The translations under genes and the position numbers were made by a program. Below are positions 2,835 through 39,220 of a DNA stretch of 45,737 nt, one piece after another. The stretch covers positions 1 through 45,737 of the forward strand of contig JAGGXP010000023.1 of the NCBI GenBank assembly GCA_021163005.1, given 5' to 3'. The DNA comes from Candidatus Aenigmatarchaeota archaeon (GTDB lineage Archaea; Aenigmatarchaeota; Aenigmatarchaeia; QMZP01; JAFGSV01). How positions within the stretch are numbered: position 1 is the stretch's first letter; each line of letters begins with the position of its first letter. A model generated the notes under the pieces. It saw nothing but the letters and a program-made list of their open reading frames with translations, was not told the origin of the DNA and did no database searches.

Positions 2835-3073
2835 GCCTCGATGGTGTAGTGGCCTAGCATATGGCCCTGTCACGGCCATGACCCGGGTTCAAAGGCACCC
2901 TTTTCCATAAGCATACATGGAAAAGCGCGCTCCGGAAAATACGTTAACAACAAATGAACGGTGCGCAGAGGAGCCGTGTCCGGAAGGGGTATCCATTCCG
3001 CAGGGTTTTGGATGGCAACCTTCTGGAAGAAACTGGCAGACTCTAAAATGTGCTGGAAATCCCGGTCGGGGCG
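2835..3073 (+). tRNA. tRNA-Asp(GTC) with 166-nt intron at 59/60 (2894-3059)
   Basis: GCCTCGA/TCGGGGC acceptor stem, G73, TGGCC CT GTC AC GGCCA anticodon arm. BHB TTCA/TGGA with outer helix GCAC/GTGC. Confidence 0.95.
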
Positions 3074-3797: not shown

Positions 3798-3926
3798 ATG
3801 ACTTGCATAGCTTGTGGTTCCGAAAGCGAGTTCCGCTGCACGATGAAGGGCATGACAGTGTGCCTCTGCTCCGAGCATGTCCAGAAAGATGTGCACTATG
3901 ATGCAATGGAACGCGTCCTCAACTGA
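3798..3926 (+). CDS. 42-aa Cys-rich putative metal-binding microprotein (not in ORF track)
   Basis: MTCIACGSESEFRCTMKGMTVCLCSEHVQKDVHYDAMERVLN, with CxxC...CxxH. BRE/TATA-like GGAAAAGTCTTTATAAA lies about 25 nt upstream (leaderless). Confidence 0.65.
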   Translation: MTCIACGSESEFRCTMKGMTVCLCSEHVQKDVHYDAMERVLN

Positions 3927-3941
3927 AATTCCTCCAGATGA

Positions 3942-3990
3942 CCCGGGTCTGCCAGGCGCCCCATCCAGGCAGGCCTGGGCGCATTTTTTT
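3942..3990 (+). terminator. GC-rich hairpin followed by a T tract
   Basis: CCCGGGTCTGCC (3942-3953) pairs with GGCAGGCCTGGG (3968-3979), followed by a T run. Confidence 0.6.
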
Positions 3991-4242
3991 AACTTATTTA
4001 AAAACTAAAGTCTACAAATTCTTTTCAATGGGCCCGTAGCTCAGTCTGGCTAGAGCACCAGACGAGTGTGTTGCACGTCGTGCAGCACCTCAGGTGAAGC
4101 TTTTAATGTCATTAAAAGCGTGTTTAGGACCTTCAGAAATCCCGTGCAATGAACACGGCACTGCAAGAGGTTCCGATGACAGAATAAACCTGGGTGTCGC
4201 GGGTTCGAAGGCTCAAGGGGGCTTCGGCAGCTTACACGTGCA

Positions 4243-4421
4243 TGCCCCCTTAAAGCATTATTCCCCGCTTAAGAGGGCCAACGGCAACGGACAGCAACGC
4301 AAGATGACGGCTAACGCAGGATGAGCAAAGCCGTCCCGAACAGGAACGCAATCCGCCTGCATGCACAGGATGGATAAAGCAGGCTTTAGGCACATCTGCC
4401 CCCTTAAAGCATTATTCCCCG
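4243..4421 (+). repeat. 25-nt direct repeat TGCCCCCTTAAAGCATTATTCCCCG (4243-4267, 4397-4421) in tRNA-Lys intron 3
   Basis: Exact match. Confidence 0.95.
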
Positions 4422-4651
4422 TTAAAAGGGAAGAGAAGATGGGGAAAGGGAATGGTGCACAGGTTCCCCAGTAACAATGAAGAAGGAAAGGGGAATCAGG
4501 ACAGCAGCGGAAAGCCGCAAAGGTCGTGCAGGTCGCGCGGCTCGAACACTACGAACAGGAACGCACACCGCCTGCATGAACATAACGGACAAAGAATAAT
4601 CGAACAGGAACGCAATATGACGACTTGAACAGAATGAACAAGTCGTCTTTA
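4288..4651 (+). repeat. four ~49-nt hairpin repeat units (starts 4288, 4337, 4552, 4601) in tRNA-Lys intron 3
   Basis: Leader CGAACAGGAACGCA (exact x3, variant x1), then 4 nt, a 6-bp stem arm and a 17-18-nt loop. Units occur in pairs spaced exactly 49 nt; the 4552 unit lacks its right arm. Confidence 0.9.
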
Positions 4652-4809
4652 AAAGGTATGCACAAAGCAGGCTTTAAGCCGCATTTAAAAGCTGTCCATG
4701 AGCTGGAAATCCTGCCGGGCCCATTTAAGCTTTTGGCGCAAGCGGAAGTGCCGTAAAAGGTTAACTTTAAATAGGCACGAAGCTGTTATAATTGGATTGA
4801 AGTGATAAC

Positions 4810-5202
4810 ATGCAAAGCTCTCACATAGTCAAAGTGGATTCAAAAGGCCGCGTGCTTATCCCCGTTGACATGAGAGCTGATATGAGCATAGCTGACGGAA
4901 CGCACATACTTGTCACACGCGACGAGAGCAACGGACACCTCAGGATGACACCCATACCCAAGGGAAGCATGGCAGAGGTAAGCATGAAGATATGTGAATT
5001 CAGTCTCATGGCATCTGTGGCGGACGCGCTTTCAGGGAATTCCTTCAACATAATAATGAGCGAAAGCAAGCGCATTGACGAAAAAAACACAGAGATAAGA
5101 ATGCTTGTAGACCTTTCGGAAGCTTCCAGGAATATGGACGCGCTCAGGGAAATATTATCCAACATAGAAGGTGTAAATGCCGTTGATGTTGCTGCAAAAT
5201 AG
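4810..5202 (+). CDS. AbrB/MazE-type DNA-binding domain plus ACT-like domain regulator
   Basis: KVDSKGRVLIP N-terminus; C-terminal ACT-like beta-alpha pattern. Confidence 0.8.
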   Translation: MQSSHIVKVDSKGRVLIPVDMRADMSIADGTHILVTRDESNGHLRMTPIPKGSMAEVSMKICEFSLMASVADALSGNSFNIIMSESKRIDEKNTEIRMLVDLSEASRNMDALREILSNIEGVNAVDVAAK

Positions 5203-25163: not shown

Positions 25164-25994
25164 TTAATCCAGAACCCTGAACTCCACGCAGACCTTCCAG
25201 ATTCTTGGACCGTAAGGAAGCACCTTTCGCTTGTCCAGAATCTCGACCTTTTTATGGGCCTTTTCGGCTGCTTTTTCAATATATTCAACAGCCTTTCCGT
25301 AGAGGTCGTCTTCCCTGTCGTAATGGTAGAAATGCACAATGCCGCCCTTTTTAGCCACTTCAAAGACCGTGTCGAGGAACTCGTGGGCGCCTTTCGGGAG
25401 CGGCATGGTTATCCTGTCGAATTTTATGCCAATACGGGGGCACACCTCTTTGACATTGCCCAGAACAGGCACCACCTTTGTCTGCATCCTGTTCAGGCGC
25501 ACGTTTTCCAGTGCGAATTTATGCGCTTCAGGATTGAGTTCCACGCCGTATGCCTTGTGCAGCCCGGGCTGAAGCTTCGCATATACTACAGGCGACGGGC
25601 ACACGCCGCTGAACATGACAAGGACGTCCTCTCCGGGTTTTATCATCTTCGCTATGCGCACCCTCTCCGTGGATTCCCTCGGCGAAAAATACGCCTTAAC
25701 GACATCAACCCTGAACCTGCACCCGTTCTCCCTGTGCTCCGTGAGCGTGCTTCCGCCTGCTATTACCTCAAGGCTGTTCAGCCTGTAGTCGCCTGAACGC
25801 TCCCCGTACTTGTCGCAGACTGTCTTAACGTGCCTGTTGACCTTCATTAGCGCTTCGGCTATGAGTTTCCTTTTTTTCTTCAGCTCAAACGGTATCTCTA
25901 TGATGGCAACGTCGCCTATGACGTCGAAAGCCCTGGGAACGCGCTTCAGTTCGTCTTCTGTGAGCTTTCCCCTCAGAACGTCTTTCATATTCAT
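25164..25994 (-). CDS. trm5: Trm5/Taw2-family tRNA methyltransferase
   Basis: FDVIGDVAII, HRENGCRFRVD, YFSPR..ER, VELNPEA, DRITMPLP. Confidence 0.85.
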   Translation of the reverse strand: MNMKDVLRGKLTEDELKRVPRAFDVIGDVAIIEIPFELKKKRKLIAEALMKVNRHVKTVCDKYGERSGDYRLNSLEVIAGGSTLTEHRENGCRFRVDVVKAYFSPRESTERVRIAKMIKPGEDVLVMFSGVCPSPVVYAKLQPGLHKAYGVELNPEAHKFALENVRLNRMQTKVVPVLGNVKEVCPRIGIKFDRITMPLPKGAHEFLDTVFEVAKKGGIVHFYHYDREDDLYGKAVEYIEKAAEKAHKKVEILDKRKVLPYGPRIWKVCVEFRVLD

Positions 25995-26445: not shown

Positions 26446-27273
26446 ATGAAAATTGCATACGTGGCGGCGGCTGTCGCGCTATTGCTAGTTATCGGGGGGT
26501 TTGCGGTTTCATTCCAGCCCCAGAAGCCTTTCGTGAAGGCCTTCTACGATTCAGCGCCAAGGGACAATGGCACAATAGATGCGGAAAAGCTCATCCGAAC
26601 ACTTTCCGACGGAAACGCCAACACATACAACTTCCTGATGAGGAGACCGTCTGATTTCGAATCCCTCAAAGAGCTGCTTCCACTCGCTGCTGCCAAAGAC
26701 ATAGACATCTGGGTAACGCTCATACCGCCATCCGAGCTGAGCCCGGAGCAGAGGAACGACCCTGCATACACGGACTACAATGCATGGGCAGAAAAGCTGG
26801 CGAAGCTTTCGCTTGAGCATGAAAACCTGAAGGCATGGAGCATAGACAACGTCGTGATTGACAGCACGTTCTTCACACCGCAGTACCTCGGGTCCATGCT
26901 CGGAAAGGCGAGGGATATAAGCCCGAAGCTCATGTTCATACCGGTCGTCTATTACCAGAACGTGATTTCAGACGGCTTTGCCGAGCAGGCAAAATATTTC
27001 GACGGGGTGCAGTTTTACTACATGCACTTCCCCGGCGGGCCGCCAGCGGAGTCTGATATACTGATGACCCAGCTGCAGGAGCTGAGAAAGAGATTCGGCG
27101 GCATAGTCGTGCTTGGCTTATACGCGACTCCGTGGTCTCAGGAGTTCCCGACAAGCGCTGACTATGTGCAGCAGCTTATAAACCTTGCCAGGCAACATAC
27201 AGACGGTGTGATGATTTACACACTGAATCCGGGAGCGGAAAAATTCGAGGTCATAAGGCAGGAATTCGCATGA
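26446..27273 (+). CDS. secreted/membrane-anchored protein, possibly TIM-barrel glycoside-hydrolase-like
   Basis: N-terminal signal anchor and an alternating beta/alpha pattern (IDIWVTL, AWSIDN, DGVQFYY, DGVMIY); the fold call is inference. Confidence 0.65.
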   Translation: MKIAYVAAAVALLLVIGGFAVSFQPQKPFVKAFYDSAPRDNGTIDAEKLIRTLSDGNANTYNFLMRRPSDFESLKELLPLAAAKDIDIWVTLIPPSELSPEQRNDPAYTDYNAWAEKLAKLSLEHENLKAWSIDNVVIDSTFFTPQYLGSMLGKARDISPKLMFIPVVYYQNVISDGFAEQAKYFDGVQFYYMHFPGGPPAESDILMTQLQELRKRFGGIVVLGLYATPWSQEFPTSADYVQQLINLARQHTDGVMIYTLNPGAEKFEVIRQEFA

Positions 27274-28466
27274 TTGAGATAAGGTTTGACCCCAAAAAGG
27301 GCATATGGGCAGAGAATGAGGACGCAGACAGGCTGAGGAACAACTCCTTCGGAAGACAGGAAAAGGACAAGCTGTGGCTCATGCCGGAAGAGGCGCTCTA
27401 CATTCTCGACCTGATGAACGGCAGGGCTGTGCGTGGCAAAAAGCAGGCGGGATTTGAAGACATCGTGTCCGCTTATGCAGCGAAAGACCCGAGGATACTG
27501 CTAAAATACAATGCCTACAGGGACTGGCGCGACCGCGGCCTTATAGTCAAAAGGGTTGATGACGGGATTAAGGGCAGCAGCAACAGAGCCGGGCATGTGA
27601 AGAAATATCCGTCAAAGGACATGAAGGTGGCAAAAGGCAGGGGGAAAATCCTTTGGGACGATGACTCGGCCATGGGCATCTACACAGCCGCCGACGCCAG
27701 GACGCTGTATTCGGATTGGTGGCTCGGCCAGATAGGCGTTTACAAGCAGGATAGGGGCAGCGTCCTCAAGCTCAATTTCTTCGAGGTCGTGCTGCTGTCT
27801 AAACATTTCGGCTTTAAGGTGAGGAATGCCAGGACGGGAAAGAGCATCACCGCGAAAAGGATAATGGATGAGATATCCAAGCGCAGGGAATTTGCCCGTT
27901 CAATGTACCAGGCCTACGAGGACTGGAGGATGCGCGGCTACATAGTCAAGACCGGCTTTAAGTTCGGCACCCACTTCAGGATTTACTTTCCAGAGGCATC
28001 GCCTCTCAGGGAAACGTCCAACGGAAAATGGATCCACTCCAAGCATGTCCTTCACATATTTCCCAAGGAAGAGAAGTTGCTGATTTCAGAATGGGCGAGG
28101 GCCGTGCGCGTTGCTCATGGTGTCAGAAAGACTTTCATACTGGGTGTGCCGAAGATAACGAAAAAGGATTGTGTGGACTACCCGGCAGACTTTGTGGCGT
28201 TCAGGCGCAAGAAGAAGGGCAAGGACTGGGTGAGGGAGGCGCCGCCGAAGGACAGGCCGAGGTATCTTCTTGCAGACCTGAGCGAGGAAGAGCACATAGG
28301 CGGCATTGAGCTGGCATCGCTTCTCGCCAAGGCAGGGGGCATGAATCTCAATCTCATACTTTCCATAACAGACAGGGAAACTGCCATAACCTACTACGCG
28401 CTCAACAAGATAAAGATACAGGGCGCGAAGTTCGACTACTACGAGATAGAGTGGCTGAGGCCCTGA
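27270..28466 (+). CDS. endA: tRNA splicing endonuclease, three-unit epsilon2-type
   Basis: 398 aa. Duplicated N-subdomain (PEEALY..YRDWRDRG), a full catalytic unit (KTGFKFGTHFRIY, HS, VAHGVRK) and a beta-type C-terminus ending EIEWLRP; inserted loop WWLGQIGVYKQ. Confidence 0.92.
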   Translation: MIEIRFDPKKGIWAENEDADRLRNNSFGRQEKDKLWLMPEEALYILDLMNGRAVRGKKQAGFEDIVSAYAAKDPRILLKYNAYRDWRDRGLIVKRVDDGIKGSSNRAGHVKKYPSKDMKVAKGRGKILWDDDSAMGIYTAADARTLYSDWWLGQIGVYKQDRGSVLKLNFFEVVLLSKHFGFKVRNARTGKSITAKRIMDEISKRREFARSMYQAYEDWRMRGYIVKTGFKFGTHFRIYFPEASPLRETSNGKWIHSKHVLHIFPKEEKLLISEWARAVRVAHGVRKTFILGVPKITKKDCVDYPADFVAFRRKKKGKDWVREAPPKDRPRYLLADLSEEEHIGGIELASLLAKAGGMNLNLILSITDRETAITYYALNKIKIQGAKFDYYEIEWLRP

Positions 28467-28474
28467 ACCGGTAA

Positions 28475-28575
28475 GTGCCTAAAGACGACTTTGTCCACAC
28501 TGCGCATGTCGTCGGTGTGCGTTTCTGTTCGATTTTGTCCGTTCCGTATATGTCGTCGGTGTGCGTTTCTGTTCG
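28475..28575 (-). repeat. two copies of the tRNA-Lys intron hairpin unit (26-nt exact direct repeat at 28506-28531 and 28550-28575)
   Basis: Reverse complement CGAACAGAAACGCACACCGACGAC...GGACAAAGTCGTCTTTAGGCAC aligns with 4337-4393 and 4552-4651. Confidence 0.9.
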
Positions 28576-28629
28576 TCCCCTTCAGTTTTACGCGTCAGCG
28601 GAAAACAGGCTTACTGTTCTCGCAGTTTC

Positions 28630-38479: not shown

Positions 38480-39220
38480 TTATTTCACTTCATTGAGCAC
38501 TCGTGCGCTGACATTGTCGAAATCCGGCAGCCTTGAAACAAGAGGCCCAAGTTCGCTTTTCCACACATTTTTCTTGTCCATGACATGCCTTATAAAGAGT
38601 CCGGCATCCCATTTTTTCCCGTAATATTCAAGCTTTTTTCTTATCAGCGGTATATCGAACGAGACGCCGTTTCCTATTAGAAACCATATATCGTAAAGGT
38701 CCCTCGCCTTCTGCCTCGTTACGACTGCTCTGACTTTCTCCGCAAGTATCTCCTTTTTATTCATCACAAACACGTCAAATACCGGAATTTCTTCCAGGAA
38801 TCTTCCTATGGTTTTTGTTACAGGAGGCTCAATTATCTTTTCACGAAAGCTGAAATCCAGAACGAGCCTGCACAGGCTTTGCCTTATCAATGAATAAAGC
38901 GGCCCCTTGATTCTCAAAATGACCTTCAGCCCTCTCTCGTATGTTTCCTTTTCCATTTCATACTCAATCCTGAACCTTTTCAGTCCGTTCAGTATGTTCC
39001 TGAGTTTCACTTCTTCTCTGCACGTGAAGTCGAGGTCTTCTGAAAATCTGTCGAGGCCGTAACATTTTTTGAGGGCAGTGCCGCCCTTAAACACTAGGTC
39101 GGCGCCGTGAATTCTGGAAATTATGAAAAGCAGTATATTCTGGAAATAATCCTTTTCTGCATGTCCGAGTGCTAACCCTGTCATTCTTGCGTATTCCTTC
39201 AGTTCTTCGGCTGTTATCAT
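38480..39220 (-). CDS. AbiEii-family nucleotidyltransferase toxin (type IV TA)
   Basis: EKDY, FKGGTAL, RFSEDLDF, EK.RA...R.KARDLYD. Confidence 0.92.
   Translation of the reverse strand: MITAEELKEYARMTGLALGHAEKDYFQNILLFIISRIHGADLVFKGGTALKKCYGLDRFSEDLDFTCREEVKLRNILNGLKRFRIEYEMEKETYERGLKVILRIKGPLYSLIRQSLCRLVLDFSFREKIIEPPVTKTIGRFLEEIPVFDVFVMNKKEILAEKVRAVVTRQKARDLYDIWFLIGNGVSFDIPLIRKKLEYYGKKWDAGLFIRHVMDKKNVWKSELGPLVSRLPDFDNVSARVLNEVK

Follow-up and report, generated by a model that had tools for sequence, protein, structure and literature searches.

How does a tRNA gene accommodate 500 nucleotides (nt) of additional DNA in its T-loop, and what is that DNA? The question is raised by positions 4210–4709 of a 45,737-nt contig (JAGGXP010000023.1), here called the window and numbered C14 among the contigs of its genome, from the vent archaeon Candidatus Aenigmatarchaeota archaeon (assembly GCA_021163005.1; 945 kb in 43 contigs, 91% complete). 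The Aenigmatarchaeota are DPANN archaea, and it is in metagenome-assembled genomes under this label that the RNA polymerase B gene of the present genome has its closest relatives, at up to 83% identity. An earlier note, made from the letters of this DNA, had read the segment as a non-coding intron of a tRNA-Lys gene, closed by a motif of the bulge–helix–bulge (BHB) type between tRNA positions 59 and 60. We find that the segment is, at the level of sequence and predicted structure, a genuine BHB intron, that it belongs to a set of T-loop introns found throughout the genome, and that it probably owes its size to recombining, species-specific repeats without a dedicated function.

Positions 4030–4723 of the forward strand form a tRNA-Lys(UUU) gene of four exons and three introns (Table 1). 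When 4062–4098, 4107–4188 and 4210–4709 are removed in silico, ARAGORN recognizes the remaining 75 nt as tRNA-Lys(ttt) with all cloverleaf stems intact. The start of the tRNA is at 4030 and the other two introns are at 30/31 and 38/39 (or 37/38), which corrects the earlier note. The third intron (hereafter intron 3) has the T stem as the outer helix of its splice motif (GCGGG, 4199–4203, with CCTGC, 4711–4715). Inside it lie a central helix of four base pairs (bp), formed by TTCG (4204–4207) and TGGA (4704–4707) with two Watson–Crick and two G·U pairs (T–A, T·G, C–G and G·T), 3-nt bulges AAG (4208–4210) and AAT (4708–4710), with predicted cuts after 4209 and 4709, and an inner helix of GCTCA (4211–4215) and TGAGC (4699–4703). 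In the minimum free energy (MFE) fold of 4189–4723, the T stem and the inner helix are closed across the 500 nt. The helices, the bulges and the restored cloverleaf bear out the BHB that the earlier note had seen at 59/60. Because the cloverleaf is restored and the same motif occupies the same position in 21 other tRNA genes, chance can be excluded, and this evidence confirms 4210–4709 as a genuine BHB intron at 59/60 of tRNA-Lys(UUU). No second tRNA-Lys(UUU) gene was seen in the 91%-complete genome; the other tRNA-Lys is CUU (on C3), and the eight other UUU stem-loops of the genome all lie outside a tRNA context. The gene should therefore be essential, and intron 3 must be removed.

Standard finders recover few tRNA genes here. 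With default settings, ARAGORN reports none in the window and two in the genome, and with introns allowed it reports seven in the genome, of which two are intron-less and five have a single intron. The Rfam tRNA model scores above its cut-off seven times, and at the gathering threshold Rfam finds 5S rRNA alone in the window. As ARAGORN is blind to genes with several introns, we wrote a custom scan that looks for an acceptor stem together with a T arm and allows a gap of any length in the T-loop. The scan requires U8, G53, TTCRA and perfect stems, so some genes are missed. From 688 raw candidates, 25 were picked by eye on the basis of a GC-rich acceptor and a tRNA-like D arm, and two more genes were found by reading; the resulting inventory is incomplete and partly subjective. 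At least 22 tRNA genes of the genome carry T-loop inserts, which range from 31 to 500 nt and have the helix–bulge–helix–bulge–helix motif (hBHBh′) at one position. When 22 T-loop introns were placed in a fixed register, pairing was complete in the T stems (110 of 110 cells) and reached 76 of 88 cells in the central helices and 71 of 88 in the first four inner-helix bp; three of the 22 fit in a shifted register alone. Thirteen sequence types of the inner helix occur among them (for example, GCTC/GAGC, GCAC/GTGC, GAAC/GTTC and GCTT/AAGC), so that the sequence varies while the shape is constant, which matches the prediction for a functional BHB. Multi-intron T-loop genes thus explain why standard finders recover just seven tRNA genes in this genome. 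They also change the standing of intron 3, which had been taken for a singular oddity: it is part of a genome-wide system, in which it is the longest intron, and another tRNA gene contains its 495-nt twin.

Two further tRNA genes that ARAGORN and Rfam miss lie in the window itself, at 1665–1942 and 2835–3072 of the forward strand. Their T-loop introns of 138 and 166 nt belong to a second intron family with the head (G)GCACCCTTTT or AACCCTTTTG, and together with the 5S rRNA gene (2662–2775) they make up a small RNA gene cluster 5′ of tRNA-Lys. At two other places in the genome (C29:17689–17703 and C1:13078–13092) we observed orphan 15-nt tRNA 5′ fragments (GGGCCCGTAGCTCAG) that continue into an intron-like head, about 250 nt 5′ of complete tRNA genes. 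These fragments may be remnants of partial duplication, or parts of tRNA genes with a D-loop intron.

Intron 3 is a member of a family of T-loop introns, family A, that is present in at least nine tRNA genes of the genome. The introns measure 115 (C15), 176 (C26), 199 (C4), 220 (C28), 277 (C25), 495 (C23:9589–10083) and 500 nt, and two further members run off contig ends (C24:1 to ~310 and C23:1 to ~300). The first ~60 nt and the last ~10 nt (GAGCTGGAAA) of intron 3 are common to other family-A introns, and the shared head reads GGCTCAAGGGGGC, a loop and then GCCCCCTTAAAGCATTATTCCCC. The 495-nt intron sits in a different, long-arm tRNA and is collinear with intron 3, module by module. A 22-mer, CCCCCTTAAAGCATTATTCCCC, has 11 copies in the genome, every one of them within family-A introns, and a 13-nt core is identical in all. 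In one genome of the same genus (G002) the head occurs alone, as a T-loop intron of ~82–88 nt with two changes in the 22-mer; for this reason, the ancestral family-A intron probably had a length of ~80–115 nt.

Most of the extra length of these introns is a hairpin repeat of ~49 nt. The unit comprises a conserved GAACAGGAACGCA, a hairpin of 6–9 bp with a copy-specific stem and a conserved loop (..CAGGATGAACAAAG), and then TTTAGGC or TTTAAAAGG; units stand head to tail at 49-nt spacing and share the 5′ motif and the internal hairpin. Across 24 aligned copies, 81% of the cells for the six stem pairs are paired, and the misses come mainly from five copies with a stem shifted by one base. Three of the pairs have changed on both sides, and none of 500 shuffles reaches the observed covariation score. 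A covariance model finds 37 copies in the genome: 19 in family-A T-loop introns (four of them in intron 3), 8 directly 5′ of tRNAs and 10 at other intergenic sites. Where units precede tRNAs, the stem ends 13–14 nt before +1 in all five ends that were read by eye. The model has no match in nine genomes of the same genus or 13 of the same family and only weak matches in 3 of 60 relatives; BLAST for the repeat, negative in most of the 60, agrees, and these negatives are limited by the incompleteness of many of the relative genomes, in which repeats are often unassembled. Absence from the 9 and the 13 genomes suggests that the repeat is young and species-specific. A MITE or an insertion sequence would be expected to have terminal inverted repeats and target-site duplications at each copy; no terminal inverted repeats were seen. 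Tandem Repeats Finder reported no tandem array, as the copies are too unlike.

The internal repeats and hairpins that had been noticed in the letters are therefore real, and they show in the fold: intron 3 alone has z = −4.57 against shuffles, with none of 100 shuffles equally stable. Its description as purine-rich holds in a mild form, as its purine content of 60.4% is reached by 9% of random 500-nt windows of the genome. The statement that the intron has no credible open reading frame (ORF), no homing-endonuclease motif and no CTGA box stood up as well. Four ORFs of intron 3 matched no Pfam family at E-values up to 0.1, indels break every frame between the 500-nt and the 495-nt paralogous introns, and neither CTGA nor TGATGA occurs in intron 3, where one ATGACGA is part of a stem. 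A search of 3900–4900 against Rfam at E-values up to 5 gave nothing credible (best E-value 0.25) and no group I or group II intron match. An intron that hosts a box C/D small RNA (sRNA) was ruled out by the missing CTGA and TGATGA and by Rfam, and a homing-endonuclease or self-splicing intron by the lack of a Pfam match for the ORFs, the lack of an Rfam intron family and the broken frames. C/D-box, H/ACA and kink-turn readings of the hairpin unit, tried by eye, were dropped as the boxes are absent, and so was a reading of 'hairpin + TTT' as a terminator, as intron 3 has no T-run of four or more. Integration of a virus or plasmid into the tRNA gene was also rejected: the 500-nt insert holds no gene, and the 3′ exon is present in a single copy and is joined by the BHB.

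An orthologous tRNA-Lys gene stands upstream of rpoB in many relatives. In the seven closest of these sister genomes, a comparison that the earlier note had looked to, introns 1 and 2 are kept almost unchanged and the T-loop introns measure 0, 0, 0, 16, 32, 73 and 141 nt. Among 33 loci that the custom scan found to have the same acceptor stem (with the anticodon checked in part of them), the T-loop insert is 0 nt in 11, 16–141 nt in 21 and 289 nt in one; the 289-nt intron, from a more distant relative, consists of its own, unrelated tandem repeats. In three orthologues from the same genus (L011, L019 and L040) we observed a fourth tRNA-Lys intron, which lies in the D-loop and is without counterpart in the window's gene, so that this gene has two to four introns within one genus.

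Differences between strains bear on how the introns grew. When public metagenome contigs were scanned for the 22-mer, 11 stretches emerged, and complete family-A T-loop introns of 82, 82, 115, 358, 364 and 496 nt lie within single independent contigs. Contig L137 is the tRNA-Lys locus of a near-identical strain and aligns with the window from 3990 to ~4368. Agreement is almost exact from the promoter through the first three exons with introns 1 and 2 into the start of intron 3. It is interrupted mainly by 48 nt inserted into the head hairpin's loop; the contig ends in the second repeat unit, with a few substitutions near its end. The T-loop intron of tRNA-Ser(CGA) is 220 nt long in this genome versus 496 nt in contig L135. 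Up to the point where a hairpin unit ends, the two versions hardly differ, and the additional ~276 nt finish in that same unit sequence, a pattern that unequal recombination or slippage between repeat copies would leave.

The enzymes expected for splicing are encoded in the genome. The window encodes a 398-amino-acid (aa) endonuclease (Table 1) that matches PDB entry 4FZ2 over its full length (E-value 1.4e-87) and is likely, from this homology, to be the enzyme that cuts intron 3; the genome also encodes a 188-aa alpha-like EndA and RtcB. The structure 4FZ2 is described as the three-unit epsilon-type EndA of ARMAN-2, an enzyme of broad specificity that cuts strict and relaxed BHB motifs (PMC3488258). 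Homologues of the epsilon type occur in 59 of the 60 relatives searched within the order, and a 2018 account had described this type as known solely from relatives of Micrarchaeum (PMC5829648). A homologue of the ARMAN-2-type three-unit endonuclease is thus present throughout an order of Aenigmatarchaeota. Elsewhere in the genome, a probable RNase P RNA (C23:20362–20633, forward strand) matches the whole archaeal model with 71 bits, compared with an Rfam gathering score of 84. A TATA-like hexamer starts between −38 and −26 at 14 of 25 tRNA 5′ ends, mostly at −33/−32, which implies that the transcripts start at or very near +1. tRNAs that are preceded by hairpin units do not have such a box and show a CAGGATGA-like sequence at that position; the units in front of them may be promoter elements. 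Intron 3 itself has no T-run of four or more, and thus nothing obvious that would stop the polymerase before exon 4.

From these data we infer cis-splicing, a recombination mechanism and the absence of a dedicated function. Transcription from the TATA box at −33 would most likely yield one pre-tRNA. In it, the splice sites would be brought together across 500 nt by the T stem, the weak central helix of 4 bp and the inner helix of 5 bp; the epsilon-type endonuclease would cut after 4209 and 4709, and RtcB would join the exons. Excised archaeal introns can be circularized, and by analogy the excised intron 3 may be as well. An ancestral family-A intron of ~80–115 nt, with a BHB stem, a GC hairpin and the invariant 22-mer, would have spread to at least nine tRNA genes and would then have been inflated by the hairpin repeat and other modules, which may have been gained, lost and swapped among paralogous introns through recombination between repeat copies. 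We consider it probable that intron 3 is such a real, cis-spliced intron, inflated by species-specific repeats. Of the two inferences that the earlier note had offered, namely a highly expressed tRNA used to produce a large circular RNA and a safe haven for a selfish repeat, the second fits better: the repeat is species-specific, it also occupies other discarded parts of pre-tRNAs, and differences between strains are bounded by it. In its pure form it does not predict the hints of selection described below. The first draws on the circularization known in general for excised archaeal introns and on the presence of RtcB.

Several observations weigh against our reading as a cis-spliced, repeat-inflated intron without dedicated function. 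The central helix, with its two G·U pairs, stays open in the MFE fold of 4189–4723. In principle, the 3′ part could have a transcript of its own, driven by TATA-like boxes at 4648 and 4684. Among the public runs listed for the locus, none is of RNA. No single contig of four public DNA runs from four studies spans intron 3, which is tiled by pieces of 70–140 nt with a repeat depth 10–18 times that of the flanks, so that the exact internal order of the 500 nt rests on the assembler. Finally, the 22-mer is identical in 11 copies while the surrounding intron sequence is just 74–78% alike, and the stem of the hairpin unit covaries. An invariant 22-mer and a covarying stem hint that the intron sequence is under selection; from a purely neutral or purely selfish interpretation one would not expect this.

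These hints would be accounted for if family-A introns and the 5′ leaders of tRNAs carried structured RNAs, be they hairpin units, the 22-mer or the entire circle, that the tRNA-processing enzymes release and that then work independently as small RNAs, as a sponge for proteins or as a stable RNA circle. Compensatory changes that keep the hairpin stem, the constancy of the 22-mer, a fold far better than that of shuffles and the presence of RtcB fit such a function, as does the placement of 27 of the 37 units in parts of the pre-tRNA that are removed (19 of them intronic and 8 directly upstream of +1, where the spacing is constant in five of five). However, the unit was not found in nine genomes of the genus or 13 of the family, its copy number and arrangement vary between near-identical strains, the conserved 13-mers have no antisense target in the genome outside the repeats, and C/D boxes and Rfam matches are missing. 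Covariation among recent duplicates can also arise if foldable copies alone propagate, and the constant spacing to +1 may reflect duplication together with the shared first 15 nt of the tRNAs. We regard released, functional RNAs as unlikely. A low probability likewise attaches to the related idea that the 22-mer and the hairpin units have a function as RNA or DNA and exploit tRNA genes as cassettes for expression and processing, or that the 22-mer is a recognition element for the movement of introns into new T-loops. As cassettes, they would yield either structured circles of ~500 nt, through the endonuclease and RtcB, or arrays of ~49-nt hairpin RNAs, through cuts by RNase P and EndA.

The assembly data could also mean that the intron is real and its length and module order have been mis-resolved owing to the repeats. 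Apart from the lack of a spanning contig among those listed for the four runs and the raised repeat depth, many alternative joints lead into paralogous introns, and two other contigs of the genome end inside family-A introns. Most of the path is nevertheless covered by exact pieces from one run, X1; the listed pieces leave two gaps (4267–4320 and 4661–4724), which count neither for nor against it. In L137, the exon/intron junction and roughly 160 nt at the start of the intron are confirmed. Introns of this size are made credible by the collinear 495-nt paralogue, which was assembled at another locus, and by the complete introns of 358, 364 and 496 nt inside single independent contigs. A partial artefact of this kind is, in our view, improbable.

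A split tRNA, in which the 5′ part and the 3′ exon are transcribed separately from their own promoters and are joined in trans through the BHB, is very improbable. The TTTAAAAG boxes that start at 4648 and 4684 do resemble the −33 tRNA promoters of this genome, and a transcript begun from the first, near 4681, would keep the 3′ strand of the BHB. Their distances, however, fit poorly or just in part, and the second would place the start within the 14-nt exon. The family-A introns in C4 and C28 have no such boxes in their tails, and the shorter members of the family (82–220 nt) are ordinary introns. Both parts of the gene also share one strand, separated by 500 nt in which no T-run of four or more would stop a 5′ transcript. 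That a mobile element or repeat has killed the gene, as the large size and the repeat content of the insert might suggest, is scarcely credible for the sole Lys-UUU gene seen in a 91%-complete genome, given its intact exons, perfect cloverleaf and intact BHB, a promoter in place and its retention in a second strain.

Table 1 Features of the tRNA-Lys(UUU) gene, its third intron and related elements (positions refer to the window unless a contig is named).
Feature	Position	Strand	Basis or remark
TATA-like box TTTAAAAA	3997–4004	+	Starts at −33 of the tRNA; same arrangement 5′ of the orthologous gene in relatives
Exon 1, tRNA positions 1–30 (acceptor, D arm, 5′ anticodon stem)	4030–4061	+	Sequence read, cloverleaf
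Intron 1, 37 nt, position 30/31	4062–4098	+	Removal required for cloverleaf; kept in seven closest orthologues
Exon 2 GCTTTTAA, position 31 and anticodon loop CUUUUAA (UUU)	4099–4106	+	Cloverleaf
Intron 2, 82 nt, position 38/39 or 37/38 (one-A ambiguity)	4107–4188	+	Cloverleaf, orthologues
Exon 3, positions 39–59 (3′ anticodon stem, variable loop, T-stem 5′ strand, TTCGAA)	4189–4209	+	Sequence read, cloverleaf
Intron 3, 500-nt hBHBh′ intron at 59/60, family A	4210–4709	+	Sequence read, alignment, folds
Family-A head: BHB inner-helix strand, hairpin AAGGGGGC...GCCCCCTT, first 22-mer copy (4245–4266)	4210–4266	+	Common to family-A introns
Two ~49-nt hairpin repeat units (4287–4335, 4336–4396)	4287–4396	+	Covariance model matches, stem covariation
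Second 22-mer copy CCCCCTTAAAGCATTATTCCCC	4399–4420	+	Motif count
Purine-rich structured module	4421–4550	+	Nearly identical in the 495-nt intron of C23; frame broken by indels; ORFs without Pfam match
One degenerate (4551–4587) and one intact (4600–4659) hairpin unit	4551–4659	+	Covariance model
BHB 3′ strand (TGAGC, TGGA, AA before the cut)	4699–4709	+	Sequence read, motif alignment
Exon 4, position 60, T-stem 3′ strand, acceptor 3′ strand, discriminator A	4710–4723	+	Sequence read, cloverleaf
398-aa three-unit (epsilon-type) tRNA splicing endonuclease	27270–28466	+	Pfam tRNA_int_endo in two stretches and EndA N-terminal domain
Conserved element of ~100–150 nt (…AAAATGAATATGCAGAAACTAATTCATAGTAAACATAGCACAATCGCACTGTTC)	C2:~430–590, C11:~25580–25790, C28:~38660–38830, C42:~27450–27610
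Module GGGGAATCAGGAACACCTTAGAACTGAAGGGG…CCCTGCGGTTCAG	C2:375, C13:10740, C21:7018, C25:7904 and 7999, C26:2296 and 22346

Some elements related to the repeat occur outside recognized tRNA genes. The stop codon of the endonuclease gene is directly followed by two hairpin units in opposite orientation (28472–28576, reverse strand), with no adjacent tRNA seen. At four loci without a recognized tRNA, a conserved element of ~100–150 nt (Table 1) stands 5′ of a hairpin unit, and it may be a small RNA gene or a composite repeat. The module GGGGAATCAGGAACACCTTAGAACTGAAGGGG…CCCTGCGGTTCAG has seven copies in T-loop introns and intergenic DNA; within the genus, the T-loop intron of tRNA-Lys from another species (L011) contains a version of it, which makes the module older than this species, unlike the hairpin unit. 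In two genomes from other families of the order (G041 and G052), hairpins with nearly the same stem (ATGACGACTT…AAGTCGTCTTT) directly follow the stop codons of protein genes (loci L095 and L096), and one stem variant of the repeat may thus derive from an older 3′-end hairpin. Directly 3′ of tRNA-Lys, a 130-aa ORF (4810–5202, forward strand) has a weak match to a MazE/AbrB-type domain (E-value 1.7e-5).

Archaeal rRNA genes can have BHB introns of hundreds of nt, which carry homing-endonuclease ORFs and can be circularized. Intron 3 differs from these in its tRNA host, in having no ORF with a family match and in a frame broken by indels between paralogues. For archaeal tRNA introns, a 2014 review gives lengths of 11–129 nt, with medians mostly of 12–25 nt (PMC4090602); 500 nt is about four times the longest of these. 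BHB motifs at non-canonical positions including 59/60, tRNA genes with several introns and near-identical introns across tRNA genes have already been described (PMC4090602, PMC5829648), the 59/60 intron of ARMAN-2 tRNA-Cys has served as a substrate (PMC5829648), and in three Asgard genomes 92–95% of tRNA genes are reported to have an intron (PMC11291895). The literature that we searched contained no report on tRNA introns of Aenigmatarchaeota or on tRNA introns of several hundred nt; supplementary tables, such as those for the 228 Asgard introns of PMC11291895 and those of PMC8450103, may bear on the four-fold figure.

Intron 3 resembles the 59/60 introns of Thermoproteales and of ARMAN-2 pre-tRNA-Cys, as those are described, in its T-loop position, in its succession of helices and bulges and in its link with broad-specificity endonucleases. 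It differs in its 500 nt, its 495-nt twin and its build from repeats, and in a genome where T-loop introns are the rule (at least 22 genes). Near-identical introns across isoacceptor tRNA genes (2010 work as cited in PMC4090602) likewise imply spread at the DNA level guided by the BHB. Here, in contrast, a single position (59/60) is used, the introns are modular, strains differ by hundreds of nt, and modules are shared with tRNA 5′ flanks and intergenic DNA. The euryarchaeal tRNA-Trp intron that nests a box C/D sRNA (PMC4090602) is also a longer-than-usual tRNA intron with a structured RNA, but tRNA-Trp introns have a median length of 65 nt, and intron 3 has a species-specific repeat in place of a C/D box or an Rfam match. 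With the split and tri-split tRNAs of Nanoarchaeum equitans and Caldivirga (PMC4090602, PMC8450103) it has in common a BHB-like junction and the same processing enzymes, whereas here the pieces are adjacent on one strand with no terminator between them. Circular tRNA introns, as reported from archaeal circular RNA sequencing (PMC3326292) and as metazoan tricRNAs (PMC4536317), represent the fate to be expected after the action of RtcB; the circle predicted here would be far larger than those described. What appears to be new, judged from sequence, is the size of 500 and 495 nt, the dominance of T-loop introns in one genome, the modular, repeat-built and strain-variable content, and the same repeat in the 5′ flanks of tRNAs.

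How archaeal tRNA introns are gained, move and become larger is an open question. This genome and its sister strains offer a natural series, in which one intron family at one position of many tRNA genes ranges from ~82 to 500 nt, and as gains and losses are bounded by identifiable repeat units, the recombination model is directly testable. The known size range of protein-spliced tRNA introns is stretched about four-fold. Should the introns survive excision in circular form, they would rank with the largest circular RNAs that derive from tRNAs, and if tRNA genes do serve the repeats as cassettes, or the 22-mer does direct introns into new T-loops, family A would represent a new class of tRNA-borne genetic element in DPANN archaea.

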